A stretch of DNA of 64,000 bases from Usitatibacteraceae bacterium (GTDB lineage: Bacteria; Pseudomonadota; Gammaproteobacteria; Burkholderiales; Usitatibacteraceae): the NCBI GenBank assembly GCA_038901695.1, contig JBCKPN010000001.1, positions 1,105-65,104 of the forward strand, given 5' to 3'. The notes beneath the pieces are model-generated. The model ran no database searches and was not told the origin of the DNA. It saw only the letters and a program-made list of their open reading frames with translations. This document shows positions 33,937 through 62,104 of this stretch, in pieces; the stretch's first letter is position 1, and every line of letters starts with the position of its first letter. A program made the translations under genes and the position numbers.

Positions 33937-33939
33937 GCC

Positions 33940-39266: not shown

Positions 39267-39364
39267 TAATTATTAAATTAAAACAATTAGTTATGATGTA
39301 ACCCGCGCATCGAGGGTACATGCTCTACCATGTTCCGCTGAACGAGTAACTTCCAAGTCTTGTC

Positions 39365-40870: not shown

Positions 40871-41031
40871 ATAATGCACCTTCTTAATAGCAGCAATTCT
40901 GGAAATGATAAATTACGACTTCATTGGGTGGAACGCACGCACGCGCAATTTGATTGCCAAGACGCCCTCCGGCGACAGCGGGCGCTTTCACGGTTCTGGG
41001 ATTGTGACGCAGCAGATTCGAAGGATGCACC

Positions 41032-42908: not shown

Positions 42909-42922
42909 CTTGGCGAGTCTTT

Positions 42923-44356: not shown

Positions 44357-44408
44357 GCTTTAGGCCTGATGAAGATTGATTTGCGGGGCGCCCAACGTCA
44401 TCCAGCGC

Positions 44409-44774: not shown

Positions 44775-44777
44775 TGG

Positions 44778-46265: not shown

Positions 46266-46337
46266 AATCAGGCTGCTGGTAACCGTATGTCGCGCGATTT
46301 GCGTAATTTATTCGTCAACTTGTTCACGCCCACTACC

Positions 46338-47534
46338 CTAATTTCTTGCAACTACATCGTCGCCCAAGCTCGTCGGTAGAAAATCCAATAGCTTCACGCC
46401 CGCCACGACCAAGAGCCCGGCAATCGCGACACCGCCGAGGCCGAGCAATATTTCCGGCATGCTGGGAATGTAGGCGTGGATGAGACCGTCGCCATAGCTG
46501 CTTGATACCTGTGCGCCGGGGAACAACTCTATAGGGTATGCTTGCCCGCCAATGATGGTGACATACATTTGCGCCACGCCTCCAACCAACACCAGCGCGG
46601 CGGCGAAAGCGATGCCCCGGTTAGCCTTGCCAAGGCGAGGATGAAACAAGATTAGCAGCGGTAATACGCTGCCCAACACGACTTGGCCTAGCCAAAACAT
46701 CAGGGTGTAAATGCCGCCATCAAGCAGCGCAAATCGCTCGAAGCCGTGGCTCTTTGTGAAATACAAATTCGTGAGGTGGAAGACGGCGACAAAATAGAGG
46801 GCTGCGCCTATAAATATTGCCAGCAGCTGCTTGAGCCGCAGCATGATTGCTTCGCCGAGCGGACGCTGTGTCCAGCGACACACGGCCATCAACACCAACA
46901 AGTAGATGGCAAGCCCGTAGGAAAGCGAGAGGGCAATGAACATGGGGGCGAGCAATGCTGACCCATAGGCCTCACGCCCCACCAGAAACCCGAAGATAGA
47001 CCCAGTGCCGGTCGTTAGCAAAATGCGCCAAACAAAGGCAAATGTGCCTATTGCTTTTGTGTAGGTGCCCATGTGATGTTCCATCATCGACCAAAGATAG
47101 GCGGCGACAATGGCAATAAAGCCGGTGTAAAGAAAAACATTCCACGCAAAAATGGATTTGAAGTTGAAGTGGGTCATCGCCACAATCAGACGATCTGGTC
47201 GTCCTAGGTCGAGCAACAAGATGCACAGACCGCCAATCAATAACGCAATGGCCAGCAGCCCGGACAAGGGCGCCAACGGTTTATAAATTGCTTGACCAAA
47301 CACCGACGCAATCGAGGCCACATTCAGCGCACCTGACGCCGCCACGATCAAAAATACTGCGAACACATGTGGTGTGCCCCAAACAATGTGATTGTTCATG
47401 CCCGTGACGATGTGGCCGAAGTGATCCATGTAATAAGCCGAGCCGAGACCGGCAGTCAACATGACGACCAATAAGGCCAGCAGTCCGTAGTAACGTGCGC
47501 CGCTCTCTTCGACACGTCGAAAAACGATCTCCAT
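46338..47534 (-). CDS. dsrP: DsrP, NrfD/PsrC-like integral membrane subunit
   Basis: It is a ten-helix type membrane protein following dsrO. Confidence 0.85.
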   Translation of the reverse strand: MEIVFRRVEESGARYYGLLALLVVMLTAGLGSAYYMDHFGHIVTGMNNHIVWGTPHVFAVFLIVAASGALNVASIASVFGQAIYKPLAPLSGLLAIALLIGGLCILLLDLGRPDRLIVAMTHFNFKSIFAWNVFLYTGFIAIVAAYLWSMMEHHMGTYTKAIGTFAFVWRILLTTGTGSIFGFLVGREAYGSALLAPMFIALSLSYGLAIYLLVLMAVCRWTQRPLGEAIMLRLKQLLAIFIGAALYFVAVFHLTNLYFTKSHGFERFALLDGGIYTLMFWLGQVVLGSVLPLLILFHPRLGKANRGIAFAAALVLVGGVAQMYVTIIGGQAYPIELFPGAQVSSSYGDGLIHAYIPSMPEILLGLGGVAIAGLLVVAGVKLLDFLPTSLGDDVVARN

Positions 47535-47537
47535 CGC

Positions 47538-48290
47538 CTATATGCCCTGGTACCGTATGCCGGTGTTCAATCCGAGATCGGCGCGCACTTGTGAGCTGGC
47601 AACACTCGCGATGCGCTTTGAAATTTTGCTGTGGGGATCATTCAGGTCGCCGAAAATCATCGCGTTATGGCCGGCTTCGGAACACGCGTCAGCGCAAGCC
47701 GGCGTCAGGTCGTTGTCGACGCGATGTACGCACATGGTGCAGGCTTCCACGCAACCTTTGCCGCGCGGTACATCGGGTTTTTGATCGGTGAGTGGCTCGT
47801 GCACAAACGAACGCGCCCCATAGGGGCAGGCTAATACGCAATAGCGGCAGCCTATGCAGGAATGCATGTCCACCAGCACGATTCCGTCGGCTCGTTTGAA
47901 TGATGCACCGGTGGGGCACACATCCACGCACGGTGGGTCTGCGCAGTGTTGGCACAACATCGGCAAGGATGTCACCTTGCCTACCTGGCTTTTCATTTCG
48001 ATCTTACGAATCCATTGCGAATCAGTCGGCAAGGTGCCGCCTGAAAGGCCATTCTCGGTATTGCAGGCAGTCACGCAGGTAGTACATCCGCTATCGCAGG
48101 TGTTGGTGTCGATCAACATGCCCCAGCGCACCTGACTCGACGCGGCGACTTCGCCGGGCTGTGCAGCTGCCAACGCAATAAGCTGCACGCCGGGTGCGAT
48201 CATCAATCCAGCGATGGCGGCAACGGACGTGCCGAGGAATTGGCGCCGGCCTTCCTGATGCGGTTTGCCCTCCTGCTTTTCTTCGTTCAT
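47538..48290 (-). CDS. dsrO: DsrO, periplasmic 4Fe-4S ferredoxin-like subunit (Tat signal)
   Basis: The twin-arginine signal is GRRQFLGTSVAAIAG. Several CxxCxxCxxxCP motifs are present, for example CIGCRYCVLACP. Its start overlaps the dsrJ stop (ATGA). Confidence 0.88.
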   Translation of the reverse strand: MNEEKQEGKPHQEGRRQFLGTSVAAIAGLMIAPGVQLIALAAAQPGEVAASSQVRWGMLIDTNTCDSGCTTCVTACNTENGLSGGTLPTDSQWIRKIEMKSQVGKVTSLPMLCQHCADPPCVDVCPTGASFKRADGIVLVDMHSCIGCRYCVLACPYGARSFVHEPLTDQKPDVPRGKGCVEACTMCVHRVDNDLTPACADACSEAGHNAMIFGDLNDPHSKISKRIASVASSQVRADLGLNTGIRYQGI

Positions 48291-48751
48291 CGCGGCTTGT
48301 CCTTTGTAGTTGCAATTAACGGAGCTGACGCCGACTCGTCCCCCGATTGACGGCGCGGTGCAGTAACAGTGGTCGCTTTGGGTTTGGTCGCGTGGCATTC
48401 AAAGCAATCGATTTTGACAGCAGCGTAACTATGGCAACTTTGGCAGAAATTTTCGTTGCTGCCTACCACGCTATTTGTTGTCACGCTGGCATGACAGTCG
48501 ATACAATTCTTCAAACTATGCTTCTTGGTTCGAATTCCTGCGTGAACCGTCTTGTCGCGTTGATGGTTCAACAAATGCATATGGTTCTTGCGCATGAAAT
48601 CTGTTTCTTCCACGCATTGCCCGCCACTCGCGGCTTCAATGAAAGGTCTTGGAACACCCGTAGCCTTGCTTTTGTCGCCAGATCCGGCAAGCGCGGATGT
48701 TGTCAACAGGAGCAAGGCGGCGACTATCCGCACCCTCATCATGTGCGTCAT
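48287..48751 (-). CDS. dsrJ: DsrJ, periplasmic triheme cytochrome c
   Basis: It has a signal peptide and three CxxCH motifs (CIDCH, CQSCH, CFECH). Confidence 0.88.
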   Translation of the reverse strand: MTHMMRVRIVAALLLLTTSALAGSGDKSKATGVPRPFIEAASGGQCVEETDFMRKNHMHLLNHQRDKTVHAGIRTKKHSLKNCIDCHASVTTNSVVGSNENFCQSCHSYAAVKIDCFECHATKPKATTVTAPRRQSGDESASAPLIATTKDKPR

Positions 48752-48754
48752 CCG

Positions 48755-50710
48755 CTAGTCCAGACCCATCTGGATATAACCTGTTGGACATACTTCCGCG
48801 CAGATGTGACAGCCGATGCACTTGTCGTAGTCGGTATCGACGTAGCGACCCATGGTCGATTTGGATTTTGGCACTTTGAATACGGCGATCTGTGGACAAT
48901 ACACGACGCAATTGTCACATTCGAAACACATGCCGCAACTCATGCAACGCTTGGCCTCCTCCACAGCCTTTGCTTCGGTCAGTGCTTGCAGTCGCTCCTC
49001 AAAATTGCCGAGCGCCTGCTCTGCCGTCAGTTGGGTGACACCCCGCACGTTGCGTGGTGTGTAATTAAAGTGACCAAGATATAGTTTGTCGTGTGGGATG
49101 ACGTAGCGTTCGGAGCGATTGTCAAAATTGTGGATGGCAGCAGTGGTGCTGTCGGTGCCCCAAATAGGTTCATGCACCTCGGTGATGGTCAACCCTTTTT
49201 CCAGCATTTTTCGATGTAAATCGAAATAGTGCACATCAATCTTCGGGCGCTTGCCTTGTTCTTCGCCTTTCATATGGCGGTCGATTCCTTCAGCCGCAAT
49301 CGCGCCATGGCCAATCGCAGTGGTCAGCAGGTGCGGCTTGATCAGGTCACCGCCAACAAATACGCCAGGCATGCCGACGACTTGATAGCTGCGGTTGGCG
49401 CTAATGCCGCCCTTGCCGTTGTTGAACATCTCCATGCCGGTAAAGTCAACCGCCTGGCCGATGGCGGACACGATCAAATCTGCCGGAATGTCCTCCTCGG
49501 ATCCTTCGATGTTTTTGATTTCCAGCTTGTCGCCTACCATCTTTGCCTCGCACTTTGCCACGCGTAATGCCACCGCGCGCCCGTCGTCGCCCAGCACGAC
49601 GCAAACTGGTGACAGTCCGCCGCGAATGGCAATGCCCTCGCCAAGCGCGTGATCAATCTCGTGCTTGTTGGCCTGCATTTTGTCGATCGCGAAAATCGAC
49701 GTCAACGTCACTTCGGCACCCTGCTTGGCGGAAATTTCCGCCACGTCATGGGCGGCGTACCCACCGATGACATGCTCTGGGCGATCCTTTTCGCTGACTT
49801 TATCGATGTGTCCCAAACGGCGCGCAACGGTCGCCACGTCAATCGAGGTGTCACCGCCGCCGATGACCACCACGCGTCTACCCACGTGGCGCATGCGACC
49901 GTCGTTGAAGGCGCGTAGGAATGAAGTAGCCGTCACGCAGTTCGGCGCATTGGTGCCTGGCACCGGCAACGCTCTGCCCGCTTGGGCGCCCATGCCAAGG
50001 AACACGGCATGAAACGCGGCGTTGATTTCCTCCATGCTGATGTCGGTGCCTACGCGACAGTTCATGTGCGTTTTGATACCGAGATCGAGGATTCGCTGAA
50101 TTTCTGCGTCGAGTACCTCGCGGGGTGTGCGAAATCCCGGAATGCCGTAGCGCATCATGCCGCCCAGTTCGGCGTGGTCATCAAAAACGGTGACCTCATG
50201 CCCCATTTTGGCTAACTGAAAAGCGCATGAAAGACTCGCGGGGCCGCCACCGATCACCGCGACGCGCTTGCCGGTACTCGCGCGCGGCGCATTGTAGGCG
50301 ATCTTGTTTTGAATGCCATAGTCGCCGAGAAAATGTTCGACAGAGTTGATACCAACGGTGTCGTCCACCTGATTTCGATTGCAGCCGGATTCGCAAGGGG
50401 CGGGACAGACGCGACCCATCACGGAGGGGAATGGGTTGGCGTCGGTGAGGCGCCGGAATGCGTATTCTTGCCAGCCCATGCCAACGGGCGGTTTTTCAAT
50501 ACCGCGCACGATATTGAGGTAACCGCGAATATCCTCCCCTGCGGGACAACTACCCTGACACGGTGGCGTGCTCTGAATGTAGGTGGGACACTTGCCTGAT
50601 GTGTCCTCGTTGAAAATTTTCTGCTGCCACGGTAATGGTGCGCTATCGTCATCCTTGTAGCGGCGGAAGGTAAGCGGCGTGGGCGTGGTTAGGTCCGTTG
50701 TGGCTGACAT
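48755..50710 (-). CDS. dsrL: DsrL, GltD-like NAD(P)H:acceptor oxidoreductase with C-terminal ferredoxin domain
   Basis: It has a GltD-like N-terminus ([38 protein letters not shown]). The C-terminus carries CMSCGMCFECDNCVVYCP and CIGCHICAEVCP. Confidence 0.88.
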   Translation of the reverse strand: MSATTDLTTPTPLTFRRYKDDDSAPLPWQQKIFNEDTSGKCPTYIQSTPPCQGSCPAGEDIRGYLNIVRGIEKPPVGMGWQEYAFRRLTDANPFPSVMGRVCPAPCESGCNRNQVDDTVGINSVEHFLGDYGIQNKIAYNAPRASTGKRVAVIGGGPASLSCAFQLAKMGHEVTVFDDHAELGGMMRYGIPGFRTPREVLDAEIQRILDLGIKTHMNCRVGTDISMEEINAAFHAVFLGMGAQAGRALPVPGTNAPNCVTATSFLRAFNDGRMRHVGRRVVVIGGGDTSIDVATVARRLGHIDKVSEKDRPEHVIGGYAAHDVAEISAKQGAEVTLTSIFAIDKMQANKHEIDHALGEGIAIRGGLSPVCVVLGDDGRAVALRVAKCEAKMVGDKLEIKNIEGSEEDIPADLIVSAIGQAVDFTGMEMFNNGKGGISANRSYQVVGMPGVFVGGDLIKPHLLTTAIGHGAIAAEGIDRHMKGEEQGKRPKIDVHYFDLHRKMLEKGLTITEVHEPIWGTDSTTAAIHNFDNRSERYVIPHDKLYLGHFNYTPRNVRGVTQLTAEQALGNFEERLQALTEAKAVEEAKRCMSCGMCFECDNCVVYCPQIAVFKVPKSKSTMGRYVDTDYDKCIGCHICAEVCPTGYIQMGLD

Positions 50711-50727
50711 TACATTTGTCCTTGCGG

Positions 50728-52260
50728 TTATGCTTGAGTCGAAGCCGACTTGAGGGACTCGGCCTGTTTACTGCCGTCGAGCACAATGGCAGTGCTGACC
50801 AGTTGGTGTACGCCACCCATCATGTTCATGTCGAACCCGTAATACGGCAGCACCTTGGTAAACTGCGCTTTGCAAATTGCACATATTGCGGCCATGAAAT
50901 TGACCTTTCGCTGTTTCACCAGTGTGTTCAGCGCTTCCATGCGCGGCAATGCACCTTTGACGCGAATCTCCATTAGGTCGTCGGTCAATAAGCCGCCGCC
51001 AGCGCCGCAACAGAATGTAGCCTCGCCGATCGTGTCCGGCGCCATATCGTAGAAATGGTTGGCTACGGCCTTGATGATTTCTCGCGGGATAACGAACTGA
51101 CCGCCGGGCATGTCGCCCATGCGCGATGCCCGCGCGACGTTGCAGGAATCATGATACGTAATGACGCGGTCGTCGTTGGCGGCCTTGTCCAGCGTGAGGA
51201 CGTTGCGCTTAATCAGGTCAAAGGTGAATTCGCATATGTGCTGCGGCACTGGATAGCGTTGATCCAGATAATCAAAGGGTCCAATCAGCGTGTGCCAGAA
51301 ATTGTATGCAACCCGCCAGGCATGGCCGCATTCACCCACGACGATGCGTTTTACGCCCAACGCCAGCGATGCTTCACGCACGCGCATGGAAATATCTTTC
51401 ATCTGCTGATAGTTGCCAATGAACAGGCCGAAATTGCCGGCCTCGGAGGCATGCGAACTCAAGGTCCAGCTTATGCCGGCGGCGTGAAATACTTTGGCGT
51501 ATCCGATCAGGCTTTCTACATGCGGCTCGGAAAAGAAATCTGCAGAAGGTGTGATCAACAAGACTTCGGCACCCGGCATATCGAGGGGAAATTTGACTGC
51601 AACCCCCGTCTCCTCGAGCACGTCTTCTTCCAGCCCCTCCAGCGTGTTCTTCAGTGCTGGTCCGGGCAGGCCAAGATTGTTGCCGATGCGATGAACCTTG
51701 CCGATAATTTCGTTGGTATATTTCTGACCATAGCCTACCGTGTCGAGAATCTCTTTGGCCGCCATGGTGACTTCTGCCGTATCGATGCCATACGGGCAGA
51801 ACACTGAACAGCGGCGACACTGCGAACACTGGTTGTAGTACGTGTACCAGTCATCCAACACTTCCCTGGTCAAATCCTTGGCGCCGACCAGTTTTGGAAA
51901 ATATTTGCCGGCGATGGTGAAATTTCGTCGATAGACCTGCCGCATGAGGTCTTGCCTCGCCACCGGCATATTCTTTGGGTCGCCCGTGCCGAGAAAGTAG
52001 TGGCATTTGTCGGAGCAGGCGCCGCAGTGCACACAGGTATCCATGAACACGCGCAACGAGCGGTTTTTGTCGAGCAACTCGCCCATCTTGTCGATGGCCT
52101 TGTCGTGCCAATCCTCTACCAACTCGCCGGGGAATCCCAGCGCTTCTTGAATCGGCGCGGCGGCAACGAAAGGCTTGCTGTGCGCCATTGACCCGATCGC
52201 AACGATGGGGATGACCGGATAGTCATTGAGGACGGGAGTGTCGAATTTGAAGGCGGCCAA
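50728..52260 (-). CDS. dsrK: DsrK, HdrD-like catalytic subunit
   Basis: The motifs CVHCGACSDKCHYF and CSQCRRCSVFCPYG are present. The CCG domains include FCCGAGGG. Confidence 0.9.
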   Translation of the reverse strand: MAAFKFDTPVLNDYPVIPIVAIGSMAHSKPFVAAAPIQEALGFPGELVEDWHDKAIDKMGELLDKNRSLRVFMDTCVHCGACSDKCHYFLGTGDPKNMPVARQDLMRQVYRRNFTIAGKYFPKLVGAKDLTREVLDDWYTYYNQCSQCRRCSVFCPYGIDTAEVTMAAKEILDTVGYGQKYTNEIIGKVHRIGNNLGLPGPALKNTLEGLEEDVLEETGVAVKFPLDMPGAEVLLITPSADFFSEPHVESLIGYAKVFHAAGISWTLSSHASEAGNFGLFIGNYQQMKDISMRVREASLALGVKRIVVGECGHAWRVAYNFWHTLIGPFDYLDQRYPVPQHICEFTFDLIKRNVLTLDKAANDDRVITYHDSCNVARASRMGDMPGGQFVIPREIIKAVANHFYDMAPDTIGEATFCCGAGGGLLTDDLMEIRVKGALPRMEALNTLVKQRKVNFMAAICAICKAQFTKVLPYYGFDMNMMGGVHQLVSTAIVLDGSKQAESLKSASTQA

Positions 52261-52272
52261 GTTGGTCTCGCG

Positions 52273-52998
52273 CTACTTTTGTGAGGCGGCCCAAGCGGCA
52301 ACGTGTTGTCTTTCACGCGCGTTGTCGGCTTGATTGCGGGTGGGGCTGAAAAATAGTCCCGGCGCATGCAGCAATTTGCTGATCGGAAAGATCAGCATGA
52401 GTGAAGCAACTAGAAATAGGTGCAGCAACAGAATTGGGTCAGCCGGTAACGGCTGCCAGTCAAACGCCATCAGGCCGAGCATAAACGCCTTGACGGCGAC
52501 GATATCGGTCGGCGCGACATACTTCATCGCAAGTCCGCTGAGGGCAATCGCCAAAATTAGCAACAGCATGAGGTGATCAGACGGTGTCGAGATATAGCGC
52601 ACACGATCGACAAAAAAACGGCGCGCAGATAGACCGATGAGGCCCGCGACCATACCAAACGCCGCATACAAGCCAAACGGTTGAATCATCTCAACCATCG
52701 GCCAGACAGGCTGCGTGAAATAGCGAAGATGCCGCAGCAACACGAGCAGCAGCGTAAAGTGAAACAGCCAACCGAACAGCCATGTCCATTTGCTGGCTTT
52801 AAACAGGCTTTCAAAGAATACGACCTCGCGGGTCATACGCAGAACCACCCCCGACGTCGTTGTCGGCGCAGGCGTGATGGGAATTTTTAACGGGGATGGC
52901 GTGCGCGTGTAGCCGTAGATTTTGTGCGCGGTTCCGAATACCAGCACGCACGTGGCAGCGTAAAAAAGCAATGCGAAGACGATGGTCAGCGCCGACAT
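52273..52998 (-). CDS. dsrM: DsrM, NarI-like dihaem b membrane subunit
   Basis: It is a five-helix membrane protein with conserved His-containing helices, directly upstream of dsrK. Confidence 0.85.
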   Translation of the reverse strand: MSALTIVFALLFYAATCVLVFGTAHKIYGYTRTPSPLKIPITPAPTTTSGVVLRMTREVVFFESLFKASKWTWLFGWLFHFTLLLVLLRHLRYFTQPVWPMVEMIQPFGLYAAFGMVAGLIGLSARRFFVDRVRYISTPSDHLMLLLILAIALSGLAMKYVAPTDIVAVKAFMLGLMAFDWQPLPADPILLLHLFLVASLMLIFPISKLLHAPGLFFSPTRNQADNARERQHVAAWAASQK

Positions 52999-53073
52999 GA
53001 TTTGGCCTTGCAGGCGCGGATCGCCTTCGCTTTGAACGATCGATCCGCATCAATATGAAAAGGTGGAAATTCG

Positions 53074-53406
53074 CTAAATACATCCGGTCGGTTTTGGCAG
53101 GCCGGCAATTTTGCACGCTTGTTTCGCCGGGCCATAGGGGAAAAGTTCATACAGATATTTGCTGGTACCCTTGTCCGCGCCGAGTTTTTTACCAATGGAT
53201 TTTGTCAACACGCGAACGGCCGGTGCAACTTGATACTCGGCGTAGTACTCCCGCAAGAAGTTCACCACTTCCCAGTGGTTTTCGTTCATGTCGATTTTTT
53301 CCTCCACCGCGAGGTGCTTGGCGGCGTCTTCGGTCCACTCCGCCAAATTCAATAGATAGCCTTCTTCGTCAGTTTCATAGGTCTTCCCGTTTATTTCGAA
53401 TGCCAT
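53074..53406 (-). CDS. dsrC: DsrC, sulfur-carrier protein with both redox-active cysteines
   Basis: It starts MAFEINGKTYETDEEGYLLNL and contains ...HWEVVNFLREYY... The C-terminal arm is PAKQACKIAGLPKPTGCI, with Cys-x10-Cys and a penultimate-region Cys. Confidence 0.92.
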   Translation of the reverse strand: MAFEINGKTYETDEEGYLLNLAEWTEDAAKHLAVEEKIDMNENHWEVVNFLREYYAEYQVAPAVRVLTKSIGKKLGADKGTSKYLYELFPYGPAKQACKIAGLPKPTGCI

Positions 53407-53461
53407 CTTGTTCTCCAGCTCATTGATAAGAAAGTGCTCAGGCCCTGCTGTTTATATTCTC

Positions 53462-53761
53462 TTACAACCACGAGTGGACGGCATGGTGTTGCGCGACCAA
53501 TTCAACAAAGCCGCCGTAATTGACCAACTCCACGCCCTCAGTTAACGCGCCCGTCATTCCGCGCGCTTCCAAGTCGGGTGCTAGCGCGTAGACTTTTAGC
53601 GAGGGCATCGCGTTGCGAATTTTTGATTCCCCGGGGCTGCCCTTGGTCGCAGCGTAGACCGCATCCTCGATCAGCAGCAAGGCATTCCCCGCGCCGGCCA
53701 CACGCAGGCAACTATCCAGTGAAGTGTTTTCGGTCGGCGATTTGTTTACGATGTGTAGCAT
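53462..53761 (-). CDS. dsrH: DsrH
   Basis: It is a 99-aa DsrH/TusB-like protein positioned after dsrF. Confidence 0.85.
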   Translation of the reverse strand: MLHIVNKSPTENTSLDSCLRVAGAGNALLLIEDAVYAATKGSPGESKIRNAMPSLKVYALAPDLEARGMTGALTEGVELVNYGGFVELVAQHHAVHSWL

Positions 53762-53774
53762 GGTGAAATCCTAA

Positions 53775-54188
53775 TCAAAAACTGATGATGACATCTTGTT
53801 CGGCCATCAACGCGCCCATCTGCGCCGAGGTCAATACTTCAACTGGAACGAGCAGTTGTTCCTCGCTTAGTCCCCTCACGTCGAGAGACTCTTTCTCGAC
53901 GTAAAGTTTTTCGATGTCATAACCTTCGAGTGCCCGATAGGTGGGCGAAAAATTCTTCATGCCAATGGCCTTGGCCTGCTGACCTTTGATGATCTCGTAT
54001 ACCCCATCGTCCAGGAAGACCATGCTCACGTCTTGATCGAATGCCGCGCTGATCAGCACCACTTCGAGCCCTTCAAGCGCGTACACCGTCCCATATGGGG
54101 CTTTACGGTTGACGAACATGAATTTTTTGATGGTGCCAGATTCCTGGCCGTCAGTTTCGATGTCTTCAGCCATGCGTTCCTCGGTCAA
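53775..54188 (-). CDS. dsrF: DsrF
   Basis: It is a DsrF/TusC-like protein. Its start overlaps the dsrE stop by 4 nt. Confidence 0.85.
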   Translation of the reverse strand: MTEERMAEDIETDGQESGTIKKFMFVNRKAPYGTVYALEGLEVVLISAAFDQDVSMVFLDDGVYEIIKGQQAKAIGMKNFSPTYRALEGYDIEKLYVEKESLDVRGLSEEQLLVPVEVLTSAQMGALMAEQDVIISF

Positions 54189-54544
54189 TCGCCAAACACC
54201 ATTAGTCGGTCGGCTTGAATGCCGAGTTCAACCAACTGTCCCAATCCGGAAATACGAAACCCATCGGCGAGAATTTCCTCGGTGATTCCTCGACGCAACG
54301 CAGCCGCAACGCAAACAACCAAATCTACCCCGTGGTCTGCCGCGAGCTTGGACCAGCGATTGACGATGTGCCGATCGTCTTGCGGCGGCTCAGTCAATTT
54401 AGTCGCGTTGTTGACGCCGTCATGATAGAAAAAAATACGGTTTACCTGATGTCCATTTTCAAGTGCCGCGGTTGCAAAGTGAAACGCCGTGTCCGATGCC
54501 TGATGGGTGTAAGGCCCCTCGCTGACGAGTATTCCGAATACCAT
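54185..54544 (-). CDS. dsrE: DsrE
   Basis: It starts MVFGILVSEGPYTHQAS... and contains ...DLVVCVAAALRRGI (DsrE/TusD fold with the active-site Cys). The start is trimmed from the track ORF, which overlaps dsrB. Confidence 0.85.
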   Translation of the reverse strand: MVFGILVSEGPYTHQASDTAFHFATAALENGHQVNRIFFYHDGVNNATKLTEPPQDDRHIVNRWSKLAADHGVDLVVCVAAALRRGITEEILADGFRISGLGQLVELGIQADRLMVFGD

Positions 54545-54557
54545 GATCCTCCTCGAA

Positions 54558-55631
54558 TCAGAATCGAATGTGCGTGGAGGCGTTGAGGCTGGCCCGCGAG
54601 CCGCGCCAGTCGTCAATCAAATACTTTGTGAAAGGCAACCCGGTTTTTTCAAAGAATCGCGGCCAGCCGATCCGCTCCACCCAGTCCGCCGTGCGCTCCC
54701 ATGGCCGGGCGTCTGCCTTGTAGGTGTAGAGAATTTTCTTGACCACTTCCGATACCTCAGGCCAGCGCGGCGGATTGTTTGGCAAGCCTGATGCAACCAA
54801 CTTCATAAACGTTGGTTTGCCGCGCGCGTTGGAATTCTTGCCACCAACCCAAATGGCAAGTTTGGAATGCTCCGGATCATTGATTTGCATTGGCGGGCAG
54901 GGCGGATAACAGGCGCCGCAGCAGATGCATTTCTTCTCGTCCACTTCCAATGAAGGCTTGCCGTTCACCAGCGCCGGACGAATCGCCGCAACCGGGCAAC
55001 GCGCGACGACAGCGGGTCGCTCGCATACGTTGGCGACCAGCGCATGATTGATTTTTGGTGGCTTGGTGTGCTGCACGACGATGGCAATATCGGCTTGTCC
55101 GCCGCAATTGATTTCGCAACAGGACGTAGATAGGTGCACGCGATTCGGCATCTCCTCCTTGATGAACTCTTCGTATAGGTCATCCATCAAGGCCTTTACT
55201 ACGCCTGATGCATCAGTTCCGGGAATATCACAATGGAGCCAGCCCTGTGTGTGGGCAATCGCGGATACCGAGTTGCCGGTGCCGCCAACCGGGAAGCCAT
55301 GTTTGGTCAACGCCTCAATCAGCGGCGCGACTTTGCTCTGATCCGCGACCATGAATTCAATATTGCTGCGGATGGTAAAACGCACGTGGCCGTCGGCGAA
55401 CTGGTCGCCAATGTCACAAAGCGTGCGAATGGTAAACAAGTCCATCTGCCGCTGGGTGCCTGCGCGCACGGTCCAGATTTCCTCGCCGATATGGGAAACG
55501 TGGTGCAGGACGCCGGGGCGCGGCCGGTCATGGTATTTCCAGTTGCCGTAGTTTTTCAACATCACAGGGTGCATGTACTGCTTGTTGTCCGGCACACCGC
55601 TCTCTATTGGCGCTCGCATTTCACCCATCAT
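54558..55631 (-). CDS. dsrB: dissimilatory sulfite reductase beta subunit (reverse/oxidative type by context)
   Basis: It carries siroheme/Fe-S cysteines and the ferredoxin insert CPVAAIRP...KCICCGACYPPCP. The length is 357 aa. Confidence 0.93.
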   Translation of the reverse strand: MMGEMRAPIESGVPDNKQYMHPVMLKNYGNWKYHDRPRPGVLHHVSHIGEEIWTVRAGTQRQMDLFTIRTLCDIGDQFADGHVRFTIRSNIEFMVADQSKVAPLIEALTKHGFPVGGTGNSVSAIAHTQGWLHCDIPGTDASGVVKALMDDLYEEFIKEEMPNRVHLSTSCCEINCGGQADIAIVVQHTKPPKINHALVANVCERPAVVARCPVAAIRPALVNGKPSLEVDEKKCICCGACYPPCPPMQINDPEHSKLAIWVGGKNSNARGKPTFMKLVASGLPNNPPRWPEVSEVVKKILYTYKADARPWERTADWVERIGWPRFFEKTGLPFTKYLIDDWRGSRASLNASTHIRF

Positions 55632-55678
55632 CTTCTCCTGGCAATTCTTTCGTGGAACATGGTGTTTCGAATCGGAAC

Positions 55679-56959
55679 CTATGCCGCCACTTTTTTGGCG
55701 TTGATCTTGGCGACTTCGTCGTCCCAGCCGTCCATCCGGACATACGGATTCGTACGCGGTGCTGTCACCATGTTTACATCAATTTCGACGCCGATGCCTT
55801 CTAGGAAATTTACCAGCCCAATGCGTTCGATCATCTCGCCGGTGCGCTCGTGCTCGAGCGCATTTTCAGCAAAGAAATCAATGACCTTTTGGCCGAGCTC
55901 AACCAACTTTTCGTAGTCTTCCTCGGTGTCGAGCTTCAGGAACGGAACGATCACCGTCCCCATCAAGTCGCCGATTTTTAGGGTCCGCTTGCCGCCAATC
56001 AGAATTGTTGCACCTTTATCAGTGCCGGTGGCCAACGCACCGGTCATCACGTTGATGCAATGCATACAACGCACACAGTTGCTGTTGTCAATCTCAAGAG
56101 ACTGGGTGTCGTTGATCGCGACACTGGATATCTTTTCACCCTTGGCGACATTCTTGGTTTCCTTGAGCATGATGGTTTTCGTCGGACAGCGACTGATCAC
56201 GTCATTGACCAATTCGTCCATGCCATGCTTTGCAAACCACTTTTTTGCCAGCACTTCGTCGGTCCGCATATTGTCGCGCCACGTGCCGATGACCGCCATA
56301 TCCGAGCGCTGAATGGAATTCATGCAGTCGTTGGGGCAACCTGAAAATTTGAATTTGAATTTGTAAGGCAGTGCCGGGCGATGAATGTCGTCAATAAACG
56401 TGTTCAGCACCTTGCGATGGGCTTTGGCTTCGTCGTAACAGGATTGCTCGCAGCGTGCGGCGCCAACGCAGGACATCGACGTACGTACCGCCGGGCCTGC
56501 TCCACCCAGATCGAATCCCAGTTCGTTGATCGCATTGAATGCGTCCTGTACTTTTGCAGAGGAAGCGCCCTGAAACATGATGTCACCGCTCTGGCCGTGG
56601 AACGCGATCAGGCCGGAGCCGTGTTCTCCCCAAGCGTCGCAAAGTTTGCGCAGAATGTCAGTGCTGTAGTGCATACCCGGCGGCGGTTGCACGCGCAAGG
56701 TGTGAAACTCTGCCGATTCGGGAAACATGCTGGCGACTTCAGAAAACCGCGGAATAATCCCGCCGCCATAACCAAACACGCCGACCGTGCCGCCCTTCCA
56801 GTAGCCTTTTCTGGTTTTGTACGAATGCTCCAGTTGACCCAGCAGGTCAACCATGTAGTCCTTTTCCTTGGCAAGACGCTTCAAGCCGGTGACGAAACTG
56901 GGCCACGGGCCGCTCTCGAGTTGGTCGAGCATTGGGGTGTCATATATTTTCTTTGCCAT
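55679..56959 (-). CDS. dsrA: dissimilatory sulfite reductase alpha subunit (reverse/oxidative type by context)
   Basis: The motifs MSCVGAARCEQSC and FSGCPNDC are present. The ferredoxin insert reads CPTKTI...CVRCMHCINVM. The length is 426 aa. Confidence 0.93.
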   Translation of the reverse strand: MAKKIYDTPMLDQLESGPWPSFVTGLKRLAKEKDYMVDLLGQLEHSYKTRKGYWKGGTVGVFGYGGGIIPRFSEVASMFPESAEFHTLRVQPPPGMHYSTDILRKLCDAWGEHGSGLIAFHGQSGDIMFQGASSAKVQDAFNAINELGFDLGGAGPAVRTSMSCVGAARCEQSCYDEAKAHRKVLNTFIDDIHRPALPYKFKFKFSGCPNDCMNSIQRSDMAVIGTWRDNMRTDEVLAKKWFAKHGMDELVNDVISRCPTKTIMLKETKNVAKGEKISSVAINDTQSLEIDNSNCVRCMHCINVMTGALATGTDKGATILIGGKRTLKIGDLMGTVIVPFLKLDTEEDYEKLVELGQKVIDFFAENALEHERTGEMIERIGLVNFLEGIGVEIDVNMVTAPRTNPYVRMDGWDDEVAKINAKKVAA

Positions 56960-57317
56960 GGCGCCTTCTCCTGTGAGAACTATTTACCTTGCGACAATCA
57001 TATTCCGGTCGCTATGACGACTCGTTGTTTTGTGCTGCATGCCGAAACGGTGCGGAATGCTGGTGTCCATATCCACCCGCGTAACAAGTGTAAACCAGTA
57101 CACTCTTTGCATGGTGGAACAGTACCATTGTGTTCGCGGCGTAACGATAGACCTGTTAGGGGGGGGGTGGCCATTACCCATATGGGGTATGCGCAATCCC
57201 CCGTCGTGGCTATAGACTGGGGTAGGGGCAATTCTGCCCAATGCTAGCCTGTGCGCAGTCGTCGCCCGCGCACGTTATAGGGCTACAAGGTGTCGGTATT
57301 TCGCGCGCAATCTTAGG
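56960..57317. promoter_or_regulatory. divergent promoter/regulatory region between dsrA and the Cas6-like operon
   Basis: The spacer is about 358 bp, non-coding, and lies between divergently oriented first genes. It contains a G9 tract (57159-57167) and the near-palindrome tacccatatggggta. No promoter boxes were assigned with confidence. Confidence 0.5.
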
Positions 57318-57602
57318 GTGAGATTCGCATTAACGTTGGGGCGACGCGGATTTGGCGCTCGCATGGTGCTGGAGCATGGCATGACCACAATTGTCCCGCT
57401 AGAAAAATTTCACGTGCCGTTGGGTGGGCAGGATATTGAACTGCAGCAAATTGATTACGCGGGCGGCGGAATGAGTCTGTTGCGTATCCGAATACGCGAG
57501 GGCAGCCGGTTTACAATTTTCGACATCGACCCCGTTACGGCTGCGCAAATTGCTGGTGCCATTCAAACTTGGGCGGACGCGCAATTACGGGACGTCGTAT
57601 GA
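57318..57602 (+). CDS. small hypothetical protein, first gene of the divergent operon
   Basis: The ORF is translationally coupled to the next gene (ATGA at 57599-57602). The start is uncertain: GTG 57318, ATG 57363 or ATG 57381. I recognise no family. Confidence 0.45.
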   Translation: MRFALTLGRRGFGARMVLEHGMTTIVPLEKFHVPLGGQDIELQQIDYAGGGMSLLRIRIREGSRFTIFDIDPVTAAQIAGAIQTWADAQLRDVV

Positions 57603-58216
57603 CAGAGCCAGATCGACAATCGACGTTCGTGGACGTTTTGTTTGCGTTGGAGGGCAGCGCATTGCCGAAAGACTACCGATTTCTGCTCATGCGAGAGATT
57701 GGCCGCCACCTGCCTTGGTTCGAGTCGGATGACTCGGTCGGCATGCACCCGATTAAGGCGTCCAAAACAGATTATGGAATGGTGCTGTTGCCGCGACGCG
57801 CCAAACTGATTCTGCGTATGCCGCAGACGCGCGTCGCAGAAGTTCGCGTGTTGATTGGGGCGGTACTCGATATTGCGGGTCATACGCTGCGTGTTGGCGA
57901 GTTCACCGTGCGCCCAATTCAACCATATGGCACTCTTTATGCGTACTTTGTCGTTGACGACACCGGAGACGAGTTGGCCTTTATACGGCGCATCGAAGCG
58001 CAGCTTGATGCACTTTCGGTTCCATGCAGCGTCGTCTGCGGGCAGCACGGCGCGCTACAGGGGGACGGGCGCGAGTTGGAGGGCTACAGCCTGATGTTGC
58101 ACGGTCTTGCAGCACCACACTCGGTCAGGTTGCAGGAAACAGGTTTGGGGAGCGATCGCAATCTCGGTTGTGGCATGCTCGTACCGCATAAATCAGTGGT
58201 GGCGGTAGGGTTTTAG
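57599..58216 (+). CDS. orphan Cas6/Cmx6-like RAMP-family protein
   Basis: The C-terminal glycine-rich loop LQETGLGSDRNLGCGMLVPHKS is typical of Cas6/RAMP proteins. The N-terminus FVDVLFALEGSALPKDYRFLLMREIGRHLPWF...GMHPIK resembles the Cas6/Cmx6 (type I-MYXAN) family as I remember it. The length of 205 aa fits. Confidence 0.55.
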   Translation: MTEPDRQSTFVDVLFALEGSALPKDYRFLLMREIGRHLPWFESDDSVGMHPIKASKTDYGMVLLPRRAKLILRMPQTRVAEVRVLIGAVLDIAGHTLRVGEFTVRPIQPYGTLYAYFVVDDTGDELAFIRRIEAQLDALSVPCSVVCGQHGALQGDGRELEGYSLMLHGLAAPHSVRLQETGLGSDRNLGCGMLVPHKSVVAVGF

Positions 58217-58265: not shown

Positions 58266-58595
58266 ATGGCTTACTTGATCGACGGCGTTGAACGTGAAAC
58301 TGATGACTTGGGATACTTGCTGGAACCAGACTACGGCGCGGATGTACCGCCGGTGATTGCCGCCGCCGAGGGCATCACCCTGACCGATGCGCACTGGGAG
58401 GTCATCAACTACTTGCGGGAGGAATTCAAAGAACATGGACACACACCCAACTTTCGTAATTTGATGAAAGGGATGGAAACAATTCGCGATGGCGTGGACA
58501 GTAAATATCTGTACAACTTGTTTCCAATGGGGCCGGCCAAACAGGCCGCCAAGGTTGCCGGACTGCCCCAGCCGCTGGGTAAGGGTGGGTACTAG
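58266..58595 (+). CDS. DsrC/TusE-family protein lacking both conserved cysteines
   Basis: MAYLIDGVERETDDLGYLLEP...HWEVINYLREEF... parallels DsrC residue by residue. The C-terminal arm is PAKQAAKVAGLPQPLGKGGY, whereas DsrC has PAKQACKIAGLPKPTGCI. Confidence 0.75.
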   Translation: MAYLIDGVERETDDLGYLLEPDYGADVPPVIAAAEGITLTDAHWEVINYLREEFKEHGHTPNFRNLMKGMETIRDGVDSKYLYNLFPMGPAKQAAKVAGLPQPLGKGGY

Positions 58596-58642: not shown

Positions 58643-59254
58643 ATGTGTGCAATGCGATTAAAGAGTCACTGGTTCAAGGCAGACAAACCCAAGACCATGA
58701 AACAAATGGCGGGCGCGATGGCGTTTATCACCTGGAGGGTCACCGACAATGCTCTCAAGCAACTGCGGACGGCCAAGTTCGACATCGACGCTGGCCCGCA
58801 GTATTTCGCTTTCACCAGAGAATTTCTGGTGTTTCTGATCCAGATCGCGGACCGCATCGCCTATGAACGCTTGCAACCACAAGAGCGCGTCGAATTTACA
58901 ACCGAGCTGGTGATCCGGCTGTCGGAAATTTTGGAAGAAAACGAAGATCGATTGCTTGAGCCGCCGCTGAACCAAAGTTACAGAAGCCGATTCATTGACT
59001 TATTCAACGAGCTTTCGGATCATTACGCGGAATTCAAATATGTGGACAACAATCCGGACTTCGCGTTCGTGCGCTATTTGGGTAGTCGAGTCACCGAACT
59101 CATGGTGGCGAAGGATCGCACTTGGGTGATGGATCAGATCATGGCCATTGAGGCACCCGACGCGATCAAATTTCTGCAGCAGAGTATGACGGACCTGTTC
59201 CATACGGGACCGCGCGAACGCTCGAAGCGGCCGGCGCGTGCTAGCGGCGATTGA
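58643..59254 (+). CDS. hypothetical protein, 203 aa
   Basis: The ORF has ordinary, non-repetitive amino-acid composition, unlike the shadow ORFs nearby. Its stop abuts the next ATG. I recognise no family. Confidence 0.5.
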   Translation: MCAMRLKSHWFKADKPKTMKQMAGAMAFITWRVTDNALKQLRTAKFDIDAGPQYFAFTREFLVFLIQIADRIAYERLQPQERVEFTTELVIRLSEILEENEDRLLEPPLNQSYRSRFIDLFNELSDHYAEFKYVDNNPDFAFVRYLGSRVTELMVAKDRTWVMDQIMAIEAPDAIKFLQQSMTDLFHTGPRERSKRPARASGD

Positions 59255-60172
59255 ATGGCAACCGTAATGGCCACGGCGTGCACGGCAACACGACGCGATA
59301 GTCCGTTCGAGCTCGGCAATGACGATGCTTATCGACGCTGGCGTGATGAAAAGCTGCTTGACTATCCAGCGCGAGTCGACGAACTCGTGGTCGACGTTGT
59401 CGATCCGCGCGCGCTCACGTCGGCTGAAAAGGCGGCGATACTGGCGCGTGTCCGCAAGACCAATATGGCGCTATACGCAAGCAAGGTGCGTGACGCTGAC
59501 AAGAACATTTTGCGCCTGCTCGGCGGGCAATTTGGCCTTCTGCGCCTCGATCAAAACATGCTTGCCGACGACGATGGCATTACGCAAGTTAGGGTCGCCG
59601 ACGCCAATGCGGGCGCAGCGCAGCGCTATATCCCCTATACCAACCGCCCGCTCAATTGGCACACCGACGGCTACTACAATTCTCCTGCGCGACGAATCCA
59701 GGCGATGCTGTTGCACTGTGTTTGCGACAGCGTTTCCGGAGGTGAAAATGCGTTCATGGACCACGAAATTGCTTATCTATTTCTACGCGATGAAAACCCT
59801 GATTACGTGCGTGCGCTCATGCATCCGGATGCCATGACGATTCCTGCGCGCGAAGACGACGATGGCGTTGCACGTGGCGCGCAGTCTGGCCCGGTGTTTG
59901 CGATCGATCCGCATAGTGGCGCGCTGCACATGCGCTACACGGCGCGAACGCGTAGTATCGAATGGCGACAAGATGCGAGCACTCAGGCAGCAGTAGCAAC
60001 GCTCGCCCAGCTACTCAACGCCGGCTCGCCCTATATTTTCCGCATGGCATTCAAGCCGGGAATGGGTATCATAAGCAACAACGTACTGCACGATCGCACC
60101 GGTTTTTCTGATGACGTTACCCATCGTCGATTGCTCTACCGTGCCCGTTACCTTGATCGGGTGGAACCATAG
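59255..60172 (+). CDS. TauD/TfdA-family Fe(II)/2-oxoglutarate-dependent dioxygenase-like protein
   Basis: The HxD motif is present in PLNWHTDGYY and the distal His in NNVLHDRTGF. The length is 305 aa. Confidence 0.6.
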   Translation: MATVMATACTATRRDSPFELGNDDAYRRWRDEKLLDYPARVDELVVDVVDPRALTSAEKAAILARVRKTNMALYASKVRDADKNILRLLGGQFGLLRLDQNMLADDDGITQVRVADANAGAAQRYIPYTNRPLNWHTDGYYNSPARRIQAMLLHCVCDSVSGGENAFMDHEIAYLFLRDENPDYVRALMHPDAMTIPAREDDDGVARGAQSGPVFAIDPHSGALHMRYTARTRSIEWRQDASTQAAVATLAQLLNAGSPYIFRMAFKPGMGIISNNVLHDRTGFSDDVTHRRLLYRARYLDRVEP

Positions 60173-60260: not shown

Positions 60261-61745
60261 ATGACGCAATGGCTAACATTATGGCGAGCCGCGCACTTGA
60301 TCGGGGTGTCGCGAAGTGTGCTGCAACAAAAAATCCGGGTCGGGGAGTTGCAAACGACCGAGGGGACTATTTCGACCGAGGAATTGTTAAGGGTGTACCC
60401 GCAGGTTCAGTTGGAAGAGTCGGGAGCCTTTGAGCGCGTCTCGAAAATCAAGGAACAGGCGTTCGGGCGTCGCGTGCGTGAACATGTGCTCCCCAGCCAG
60501 GAGGTATTGGCACAACGCCTGTTCGCGCAGAGCGAGGAACTGACCGACTTGCGTCGTCACTTGCAGCGTTATCACAATCTGGTGGTCGCCCTGCAATCGG
60601 GGATTCACGATGTCGCGACGGCATCGAACATAGATGCACTAAACAGTCTTGAATTATTTGCCGAGAAGGGACTTGCGGATGTACTCGCCACTGAAGCCGC
60701 CGATGTGTTGGATATCATGAACGACGCGTTAAAGGTCATGTTCGCCCAAGTGACCATCCGACCAAGCGGACGCGAGTTTACGGTCGAAGGTCACGATACA
60801 TTGCTGCAGGCGGGGTTGCGTGCAGGGCTTCGGCTCAACTACGGCTGCGGCAATGGCACGTGCGGCCTCTGCAAAGCTAGGGTGATTTCCGGTGCTGTGA
60901 CGCGGACGCAGCCGAGCGACTATCCGCTTTCAGAAGCCGAAAAATTGCAGGGCTACACGCTGTTGTGTTCGCATACGGCGGCGTCTAGCGAAGTCGTCAT
61001 CGAAACTTTGGAGGCGCGCGGCTCGCAGGACATTCCACCGCAGCAAATCGTCGCCCGCGTACGCGCTGTCACGCCGTTGGCGAAGGACACGCTATTGCTC
61101 CACTTGCAGACGCCACGGACTAATCGCCTGCGTTTTCTTGCCGGGCAAAGCGTCACACTCGGCACCGCCACCAACGGCGACGATGAGCACGCCGATTATT
61201 CAATTGCGAGTTGCCCATGCGATGACCGCAACGTGCAGTTCTACATTCCGCGAAATGCGAAAGACCTATTTGCCCAACGGCTGTTTGAAGGCGCGGTGAA
61301 AGTTGGCGATAGCGTGAGTATCTGGGGGCCGCAAGGAAACTTTATTCTTGCGGAGACTCAGCGCCCGTTGGTTTTTATCGCGTGCGACACGGGATTTGCC
61401 CCGGTAAAAAGTTTGATCGAGCATGCCATGGCGGTGGACGCGGCGGAATCGTTGTCGCTCTATTGGCTGGCTACGCGTGCTGACGGACATTTTTTGGCAA
61501 ACCAATGCCGCGCATGGGGGGAAGCGCTGGACAATTTCGACTATTCGCTGCATACCGACAGCGATGTTGCCGCCGGCGCGCGACATTTTCTGCCCGCGAT
61601 TCGGGCGGATCTTTTTGTTACCCAATGCGAATACTATCTTGCAGGCTCCGCCGAGTTTACCCAGACTATGTCTGACGAGTTGCGCATGGCAGGCGTGCCG
61701 CAGCGACAGATATTTGCGTTGGAAATGCGGGAATCACATTCATGA
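60261..61745 (+). CDS. fusion protein: N-terminal HTH + coiled region + plant-type [2Fe-2S] ferredoxin + FNR-like FAD/NAD(P) reductase
   Basis: The HTH-like start is MTQWLTLWRAAHLIGVSRSVLQQKIRVGEL. The ferredoxin motif is CGNGTCGLCKARV...LLCSH. The reductase part shows RFLAGQSV, YSIAS and LVFIACDTGFAPVKSL. Confidence 0.7.
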   Translation: MTQWLTLWRAAHLIGVSRSVLQQKIRVGELQTTEGTISTEELLRVYPQVQLEESGAFERVSKIKEQAFGRRVREHVLPSQEVLAQRLFAQSEELTDLRRHLQRYHNLVVALQSGIHDVATASNIDALNSLELFAEKGLADVLATEAADVLDIMNDALKVMFAQVTIRPSGREFTVEGHDTLLQAGLRAGLRLNYGCGNGTCGLCKARVISGAVTRTQPSDYPLSEAEKLQGYTLLCSHTAASSEVVIETLEARGSQDIPPQQIVARVRAVTPLAKDTLLLHLQTPRTNRLRFLAGQSVTLGTATNGDDEHADYSIASCPCDDRNVQFYIPRNAKDLFAQRLFEGAVKVGDSVSIWGPQGNFILAETQRPLVFIACDTGFAPVKSLIEHAMAVDAAESLSLYWLATRADGHFLANQCRAWGEALDNFDYSLHTDSDVAAGARHFLPAIRADLFVTQCEYYLAGSAEFTQTMSDELRMAGVPQRQIFALEMRESHS

Positions 61746-62104
61746 TTGCAAATCAGGAGGCGCCACAACCACCAGCATCACTGATGGCTGTAGACAGTAA
61801 TTGTGCGGGCGGTGAATCGTTTGCGCTGATGGTGTTGGGCACGAGCATGGAGCCTGAATTCGTTGAGGGTGAAGTCATCGTCATTGAGCCGGATGGCCTC
61901 GCGACGGATGGTGCCTACGTATTGGCGTTTCTCGCCGAAGAGTGGACCATGCGGCAGCTGGTGCGGCGTGGCGACTTGTGGGTATTGCATGCCTTGAACG
62001 CAGCGTTTCCGGATGTGTCGATCCCCGACCTCGCGCCCGTCAAAGGCGTCATTATTCAAAAGTCCAAACCCGGGCGACGGCGGGCTTCCAAGCGATATGT
62101 TTAG
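61742..62104 (+). CDS. stand-alone S24 (LexA/UmuD-like) peptidase domain protein
   Basis: The Ser motif is LMVLGTSMEPEF with a beta-rich S24-like fold pattern, and no DNA-binding domain. Its ATG overlaps the upstream stop (ATGA). Confidence 0.6.
   Translation: MIANQEAPQPPASLMAVDSNCAGGESFALMVLGTSMEPEFVEGEVIVIEPDGLATDGAYVLAFLAEEWTMRQLVRRGDLWVLHALNAAFPDVSIPDLAPVKGVIIQKSKPGRRRASKRYV

Follow-up and report, generated by a model that had tools for sequence, protein, structure and literature searches.

What is a gene for a CRISPR-associated protein doing in a sulfur-oxidation locus that holds no CRISPR array? The question is raised by a 64,000-nucleotide stretch of DNA from a Usitatibacteraceae bacterium (GenBank assembly GCA_038901695.1, contig JBCKPN010000001.1, positions 1,105 to 65,104 of the forward strand), hereafter the window, in which a 205-residue protein of the Cas6/Cmx6 family is encoded next to the dsr operon. 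The initial annotation, made from the letters alone, had proposed a domesticated orphan Cas6 that acts on a structured host RNA, with a hairpin in the dsr transcript as one candidate target. Our analysis suggests that this is very probably a case of exaptation, in which a Cas6-family gene has become dedicated to the dsr locus and is kept under selection in two clades. The earlier idea thus stands as far as the protein is concerned, which is a fixed component of the dsr locus (85 of 87 loci in one clade, and a second clade besides), while the proposed dsr hairpin target is not borne out.

The gene itself is intact and is described by the following entry:

57599..58216, plus strand: Cas6/Cmx6-family protein, 205 residues (PF09559, TIGR02807, fold match, and the ratio of nonsynonymous to synonymous substitution rates, dN/dS)

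The open reading frame (ORF) runs from ATG at 57599 to TAG at 58214-58216, and its product ends in ...LQETGLGSDRNLGCGMLVPHKSVVAVGF, the same C-terminus as quoted in the initial annotation. A mechanical ORF list places the start at TTG 57569; ATG 57599 appears to be the better start, because four homologs with 87-91% identity are exactly 205 residues long and align end to end. This ATG overlaps the end of the small upstream ORF (GTA TGA, giving ATGA), which encodes a DUF6967 protein (57381-57602), in agreement with the translational coupling noted earlier. Compared with two close relatives, the gene has a dN/dS of 0.14-0.19, and the first four operon genes have values between 0.04 and 0.19. These values point to purifying selection, and together with the full-length identity of 35-90% among homologs they suggest that the gene is functional.

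The assignment to Cas6 is test-based, as profile, PDB-sequence and fold comparisons all agree on it. The protein matches the Pfam family PF09559 with 177.1 bits (cut-off 26.7, E=4.9e-52) over residues 11-199, covering profile positions 1-191 of 191, and the NCBIfam model TIGR02807 (cas6_cmx6, type I-MYXAN Cas6/Cmx6) with 144.5 bits, where the equivalog cut-off is 98.85. Six PADLOC Cas6 models match as well. A likeness to Cas6/Cmx6 had been recognized in the N-terminal third of the protein; the profile matches support it and extend it to the whole length. When a profile of 27 homologs was compared with PDB sequences, a single match was found, to 8FCJ chain B (E=1e-26). The AlphaFold2 model (predicted local distance difference test score, pLDDT, 91.3; predicted template modeling score, pTM, 0.87) contains two beta-alpha-beta-beta-alpha-beta halves, that is, the two tandem ferredoxin-like (RRM) domains that the initial annotation had expected. 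In Foldseek, the best match to this model is 8FCJ_B with a template modeling (TM) score of 0.86, and the remaining significant matches are all Cas6, Cse3 or Csy4 structures. Judged from its sequence and predicted model, the window protein belongs to the Cas6/Cmx6 family and has its structure intact, and its homologs carry the public database name "type I-MYXAN CRISPR-associated protein Cas6/Cmx6". A HMMER search of 1.84 billion cluster representatives gave 1775 PF09559 family clusters at E<=1e-3 and 387 at E<=1e-30.

The window protein belongs to the Cas6/Cmx6 family, yet by its context it belongs to no CRISPR-Cas system. As had been stated in the initial annotation, the 64 kb contain neither an array nor other cas genes: Tandem Repeats Finder, a direct-repeat search and Rfam at the gathering threshold revealed no CRISPR array, and Pfam found no Cas family among ~45 other ORFs of the window. 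No neighbour of the gene matches a defence family in PADLOC. The Pfam families present in the window are ArgRS, PriA, HemE, GltBD, those of polysaccharide genes, SulP (twice), Sat, a rhodanese, AprBA and a two-component system, and dsrABEFHCMKLJOPN and cysG were further identified. True Cmx6 genes sit in cas6-cas8(DevT)-cas7-cas5 operons, and the window has none of the cas8, cas7 and cas5 genes, nor the cas3 and cas1/2/4 genes, by which a type I-B / I-MYXAN system is recognized. In 87 and 80 related loci of the two clades, the neighbours are dsr, DsrC-like and TauD-like genes. A separate array scan of the window and of 89 dsr-linked loci with ~1.4 Mb of flanks found no array and did detect the array of the control locus L091. 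Among the viral contigs that we searched, there were no copies of Cmx6.

The linkage to dsr is conserved far beyond the window. Relatives of the protein occur in 260 species-level genomes (a scan with one genome per species), the best 80 of which are all Betaproteobacteria, including Rubrivivax/Piscinibacter-type Burkholderiales, Thiobacillus, Sulfuricella, Sterolibacterium and Gallionellaceae. Metagenome homologs with 34-56% identity all show the same gene arrangement. For the first clade, to which the window belongs, the proteins of the window itself served as queries against the ORFs of 87 loci, taken from betaproteobacterial genomes and metagenomes. A divergent dsrA lies upstream in 85 of these loci, and the other two have less than 600 nt of upstream flank. 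The DUF6967 gene is present in 86 of the 87, followed in most loci by a DsrC-like gene and a gene for a 203-residue protein.

A second clade, deeply divergent from that of the window, was first seen among the top 150 family clusters as proteins of ~229 residues that start with MYWQE and carry an SGNGWxRP insertion. It is represented here by the best 80 of 580 relatives from a metagenome scan (L096-L175). The gene order in this clade is dsrFEBA on the minus strand, followed on the plus strand by a TauD-like gene, two ORFs of no named family, Cmx6 and a DsrC-like gene. Of the 32 loci whose upstream flank reaches at least 2.5 kb, 28 have dsrA upstream. DUF6967 is found in 0 of 72 loci and the 203-residue protein in 7 of 39; upstream of Cmx6 there is a full-length homolog of the window's TauD-like protein (E about 1e-100). 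These comparisons suggest that the core surviving the rearrangement consists of a TauD-like oxygenase, Cmx6 and a DsrC-like protein ending in KGGY, all beside dsrAB. Some loci carry a TusA gene as an insertion within the operon. In the second clade, proteins of ~60 and ~240 residues take the place of DUF6967 (L153 6891-7881, L088 562-1488). Neither has a Pfam match, and the ~240-residue protein, encoded upstream of Cmx6, is unrelated to the 203-residue protein of the window, for which it had been considered as a relative.

In the window, the neighbouring genes and regions are as follows:

20000..57000: compact sulfur-oxidation island with two SulP transporter genes, sat, rhodanese, aprBA plus an Hdr-like CCG protein, a GAF histidine kinase plus a LuxR-type regulator, cysG and dsrABEFHCMKLJOPN
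44778..56959, minus strand: dsr operon of the oxidative type (dsrABEFHCMKLJOPN), its transcription directed away from the Cas6 operon (phmmer, Pfam)
56960..57380, no strand: control region that separates dsrA from the divergent Cas6 operon (alignment of 81 loci)
57381..57602, plus strand: DUF6967 small protein, 73 residues (PF22295, 97 bits)
58266..58595, plus strand: DsrC/TusE-family paralog without redox cysteines (PF04358, 108 bits; TIGR03342, 94 bits)
58643..59254, plus strand: all-helical conserved protein of no family, 203 residues (AlphaFold2 pLDDT 80, six helices)
59255..60172, plus strand: TauD/TfdA-family Fe(II)/2-oxoglutarate dioxygenase-like protein (PF02668, 73 bits)
60261..61745, plus strand: 494-residue protein with a [2Fe-2S] ferredoxin domain and a flavin adenine dinucleotide (FAD)-binding reductase domain (PF00111, PF00970)
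61742..62104, plus strand: S24 (LexA/UmuD-like) peptidase-domain protein (PF00717, 52 bits)

The dsrA gene occupies 55679-56959 on the minus strand, and Cas6/Cmx6 is the second gene of the divergent plus-strand operon. The first genes are likely to form one operon, because the spacers between them are short and hold only Shine-Dalgarno sequences. DUF6967, called as 72-86 residues in related loci, is fused to Cmx6 in none of the loci covered by our fusion search, and neither is DsrC. The DsrC-like gene that the initial annotation had seen downstream of Cas6/Cmx6 is indeed of the DsrC family (58266-58595; PF04358, TIGR03342). The C-terminus of its product, ...AGLPQPLGKGGY, lacks the two cysteines (C-x10-C-V) of bona fide DsrC, whereas the DsrC of the dsr operon itself (53083-53406) ends in CKIAGLPKPTGCI and its counterparts across loci end in PTGC[VI], i.e. 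CKIAGLPKPTGC(V/I). The product of 58266-58595 is thus best described, from its sequence, as a cysteine-less DsrC/TusE-family paralog and not as a bona fide DsrC. Its KGGY end, (G/R)KGGY, is invariant, being present in 81 of 81 first-clade paralogs beside Cmx6 and in 44 (+11) second-clade loci; the penultimate cysteine is absent from these paralogs, and the KGGY end is a hallmark by which the module is defined. There are 83 plus-strand DsrC-like matches in the first clade, including two second copies (L040 and L076) that end in ...KGEH. This Gly-Gly-containing end, on a DsrC-type swinging arm, could be where the TauD-like oxygenase conserved alongside it introduces a modification.

The 203-residue protein has 457 homologs, none with a functional name; it has no match in Pfam, NCBIfam or PADLOC, and no PDB relative by sequence or Foldseek. 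The 494-residue protein is conserved in many first-clade loci, and its N-terminus resembles a helix-turn-helix as judged by eye only. The gene for the S24 peptidase-domain protein is the last frequently conserved gene of the operon.

The divergent control region contains the dyad TTACCCATATGGGGTAT at 57174-57190, which reads TACCC-N4/5-GGGTA across loci and is joined by further GGGTA half-sites, and the element GATAGACC at 57146-57153. These are followed by two blocks, TATAGAC (57211-57217) and GCCCAAT (57236-57242), ~18 nt apart. Across the 81 aligned loci the blocks read TATGGAC/TATAGAC and GCTCAAT/GCCCAAT, with constant spacing and variable spacer sequence, and the region with all these elements (57140-57245) is conserved from Thiobacillus-type to Rubrivivax-type loci. 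The pair of blocks is somewhat similar to promoters of the extracytoplasmic function (ECF) type. We infer from this pattern that the region between dsrA and DUF6967 is promoter/operator DNA common to both divergent operons. A shared region of this kind speaks for joint regulation of the Cas6 operon and dsr, but it provides no RNA substrate.

What the protein does at this locus is a separate matter, and the residues expected to contact RNA are the first place to look. In Cas6 enzymes, the glycine-rich loop holds the RNA backbone, and the conserved loop and histidine features hold and cut RNA. The C-terminal glycine-rich loop of the Cas6 type, which the initial annotation had already picked out, is GLGSDRNLGCG at residues 182-192; it fits the Cas6 pattern GhGxxxxxGhG, basic residue included, and its four glycines are invariant in 27 homologs. 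Three of them, G182, G184 and G192, are common to dsr-linked and CRISPR-linked Cmx6 (99-100% in both sets). The fourth, G190, is invariant in the dsr-linked set and is replaced by Met in the Cmx6 proteins of CRISPR-associated transposons (CAST). The list of residues shared by dsr-linked Cmx6 and the CAST/I-B cyanobacterial Cmx6 is D12, F15, R73, Q179, G182, G184, C191, G192, F194 and P196. H50, in a G-I/M-H-P motif (G-M-H-P in the window protein), is His in 100% of CAST Cmx6 and in 82% of the dsr-linked set. The residues W40, R67, E125, G148, R187, G190, H197 and K198 are conserved in the dsr-linked set only, and among these R67, R187, G190, H197 and K198 sit around the glycine-rich loop. Retention of the loop, of the flanking basic residues and, in most of the set, of the candidate histidine is the chief reason to think that the protein probably still handles RNA.

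This leads to the reading that we tentatively favour, short of calling it probable, namely that Cas6/Cmx6 recognizes or processes RNA for post-transcriptional control of sulfur oxidation. The glycine-rich-loop cleft would still recognize a specific structured RNA, which the protein would bind and, in most lineages, also cleave. Cas6/Cmx6 would then be the RNA-recognition subunit of an accessory or regulatory module dedicated to dsr, possibly coupled to the state of DsrC-KGGY, or to oxygen via the TauD-like enzyme. A more specific version, in which a captured Cas6 lineage, DsrC-KGGY and the TauD-type oxygenase together form an RNA-level and possibly oxygen-responsive Dsr switch, seems to us conceivable but rather unlikely.

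Several observations weigh against a role in RNA handling. The window protein has an isoelectric point (pI) of 6.15 and a net charge of -3, and the medians of the dsr-linked clades (pI 7.5 and 6.4) are near neutral or acidic, whereas CAST/I-B Cmx6 proteins are basic (median pI 9.15, net +5). The net positive charge of CRISPR-linked Cmx6 has been lost in the dsr-linked proteins. The candidate catalytic histidine is missing in ~18% of the dsr-linked set and is Leu in the Sterolibacterium group. The constant partners all belong to sulfur-relay or oxygenase families, and none is an RNA-metabolism protein. In addition, the searches for an RNA target at the locus were negative: the intergenic spacers of the operon contain no conserved hairpin or repeat-like element, Rfam at E<=5 gave no match on 44-64 kb, RNAalifold found no consensus structure in the control region, the spacer before GCTCAAT shows no excess folding (mean z +0.28), and an extended hairpin around the control-region dyad has no more covariation than shuffled alignments, pairing 63.8% of cells compared with 62.9%, a level reached by 52 of 500 shuffles.

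Three candidate substrates were considered and rejected along the way. The hairpin between dsrC and dsrM, put forward in the initial annotation, exists (53048-53016, minus strand), but it does not stand out in the window (z = -0.57), and neither its sequence nor its presence is conserved, other loci having unrelated stems or none. Long stems with short U-tracts after dsrC are common in Thiobacillus-type loci and look like ordinary terminators or stabilizers. The second candidate was a solo repeat. In true Cmx6 loci, repeats such as GTGATTCATGGCTTCATGCCGTTAGGCGTTGCTCAA consist of a stem of 5 bp, a tetraloop and the tail GCUCAA. The motif CGCGCTCAATGCC, which lies upstream of the operon and seemed to come after a hairpin, is similar to GTTGCTCAA, the 3' end of the repeats beside true Cmx6 genes. 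The distance of this motif to TATGGAC/TATAGAC is a constant ~18 nt and the spacer folds no more than its shuffles (the mean z given above). A promoter-like arrangement fits better than a solo repeat. The third candidate was the extended hairpin around the TACCC-N4/5-GGGTA dyad, for which single sequences often give a good fold (z down to -7) and an RNAalifold consensus is absent. Departures from the dyad are one-sided and lack compensatory change, so that a DNA operator with degenerate half-sites appears to be a better reading than an RNA hairpin. We note that Cas6 proteins co-evolve with their hairpins; the target may therefore be lineage-specific, or may lie elsewhere in the genome.

The same observations can be read in another way, in which the Cas6 fold serves only as a scaffold that no longer binds RNA and instead binds a protein or a small molecule. 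Candidate ligands would be the KGGY arm of the DsrC paralog, DUF6967 or DsrAB, and the protein would act as a chaperone, an adaptor or a regulatory subunit together with the TauD-like oxygenase. The loss of net positive charge and the lack of an RNA target in our searches of the locus speak for this explanation; the universally co-occurring genes are those of DsrC-KGGY and the TauD-like enzyme, the translational coupling with DUF6967 suggests a protein complex, and the candidate catalytic histidine is dispensable in some lineages. On the other hand, no part of the protein is conserved better than the glycine-rich loop with its flanking Arg, His and Lys, the gene-fusion search gave no hint of a protein partner, and a Cas6 that functions independently of RNA is not known to us. 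We regard such a ligand-binding role as possible but unlikely.

A further explanation keeps the RNA and changes the purpose: the Cas6-like protein could present an RNA such as tRNA to a pathway of sulfur relay or hydroxylation that comprises the TusE-like protein, the TauD-like enzyme and, in some loci, TusA. In Escherichia coli, TusE hands sulfur to tRNA-bound MnmA, and this analogy is strengthened by the neighbour's membership in the TusE/DsrC family, by the TusA gene within some of the operons and by the oxygenase that is a constant partner in both clades. However, the DsrC/TusE paralog lacks the cysteine needed to carry persulfide sulfur, the operon lacks any enzyme for adenylation or thiolation, such as MnmA, and the strict linkage to dsrAB would be left unexplained. 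We therefore consider RNA modification improbable, and we also leave a small share of belief for roles outside the explanations named here.

Finally, an ordinary trans-encoded Cas6 serving a CRISPR-Cas locus elsewhere, or a decaying remnant of a lost locus, is very unlikely and already largely refuted: the public name of the homologs and the score above the TIGR02807 equivalog cut-off agree with it, and the searches covered the host genome within the 64-kb window only, but dsrAB adjacency is kept in two clades (85/87; 28/32 with enough flank), no array or cas gene occurs in the ~1.4 Mb of flanks, the window or the 87 first-clade loci, true Cmx6 genes lie inside cas6-cas8-cas7-cas5 operons, and the gene shows both the signs of purifying selection (dN/dS 0.14-0.19) and clade-specific conserved residues.

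Comparison with known systems places the protein closest to the Cas6 of type I-B CAST (8FCJ/8FCU chain B; cyanobacterial "type I-MYXAN Cas6/Cmx6"). The two belong to the same Pfam and TIGRFAM family, with a Foldseek TM score of 0.86-0.88 over the full length and the profile match to the PDB sequence at E=1e-26. Their identity, however, is only 22-30%, and the gene of the CAST protein lies in a TniQ-cas6-cas8-cas7-cas5-array unit and its product is basic (median pI 9.15 against 6.15 for the window protein), whereas the window protein is encoded in a dsr-linked operon. Pyrococcus Cas6, Cas6e/Cse3 and Cas6f/Csy4 share the double ferredoxin-like (RRM) fold and the C-terminal glycine-rich loop with the window protein, with Foldseek E values of 1e-8 to 1e-3 and about 10-15% identity. 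Hairpin-specific Cas6 enzymes cut CRISPR repeats, whereas no repeat or hairpin of this kind was found at the window locus. By analogy, these enzymes may serve as a working model in which a short stem-loop is bound and cut at its base.

Two further comparisons can be made. DsrR and DsrS of Allochromatium vinosum, accessory proteins whose genes lie at the end of the dsr operon, reportedly modulate dsr expression after transcription. Their kind of role is similar to the one proposed here, but they are not known to have any sequence or fold relation to the window protein and are not encoded divergently upstream. The best plasmid match is a Cmx6 of Gloeobacter morelensis plasmid pGMOR1 (WP_230844345.1; 30% identity), located at 79927-80718 of NZ_CP063846.1 (L093). 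Its annotated surroundings show no cas gene for 9 kb in either direction, a statement that concerns genes only, as arrays there were not searched for. Its neighbours encode proteins of the 3'-phosphoadenosine 5'-phosphosulfate (PAPS) reductase family, a cupin, DNA methyltransferases and hypothetical proteins, and there are no dsr genes among them. This protein may represent a second non-CRISPR use of the family.

We found no description of a dsr-linked Cas6 or of DUF6967 in the full-text literature, a search that did not extend to subscription journals, where a prior mention is possible; papers in which both words occur concern ordinary CRISPR loci. Literature searches by locus tags and keywords for transcriptome or mutant data on the locus returned nothing relevant. 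To our knowledge, exaptation is known for Cas1, for relatives of Cas9/Cas12 and, in transposons, for entire effector complexes. A large and conserved lineage of Cas6 (at least 260 species-level genomes and hundreds of metagenome contigs, in two clades) that serves some purpose other than defence would add a new case. It would also mean that "orphan cas6" calls in sulfur oxidizers are systematic mis-annotations. The locus likewise points to a conserved and undescribed accessory module of dsrAB, composed of Cmx6, DsrC-KGGY and the TauD-like oxygenase, with DUF6967 and the helical protein in one clade, which is present in Thiobacillus, Sulfuricella, Rubrivivax-type and other lineages. The module is probably present in cultivated relatives as well, Thiobacillus denitrificans or Sulfuricella denitrificans for instance. 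If the protein does act in an RNA switch, it would be the first case of a Cas6 co-opted to control core energy metabolism and would reveal an unrecognized regulatory layer in a globally important pathway of the sulfur cycle. Should the protein prove to be a sequence-specific RNase whose specificity is new, a use as a tool in the manner of Csy4 is also conceivable.

Repeats of other kinds are present in the window. An element of ~150 bp, similar to a miniature inverted-repeat transposable element (MITE) or a repetitive extragenic palindromic (REP) element, has 29-nt terminal inverted repeats (AGGGCACCTCTAAAAATTCAATCAAGCCG) and occurs at 62102-62250, 63568-63764, 28515-28657 and 38624-38643. Two full copies, with 96% identity, lie near the end of the Cas6 operon, and further copies or half-sites lie elsewhere; a 20-mer of the element has 7 matches in the window against 0 expected. 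Within the second of these copies, an 8-nt tandem repeat, AAGGCG(C/T)G, is expanded to eight units at 63606-63671. An intergenic site at 31204-31243 carries a perfect tandem duplication of the 20-nt unit TTTTTTGGTATTTCACTATG.

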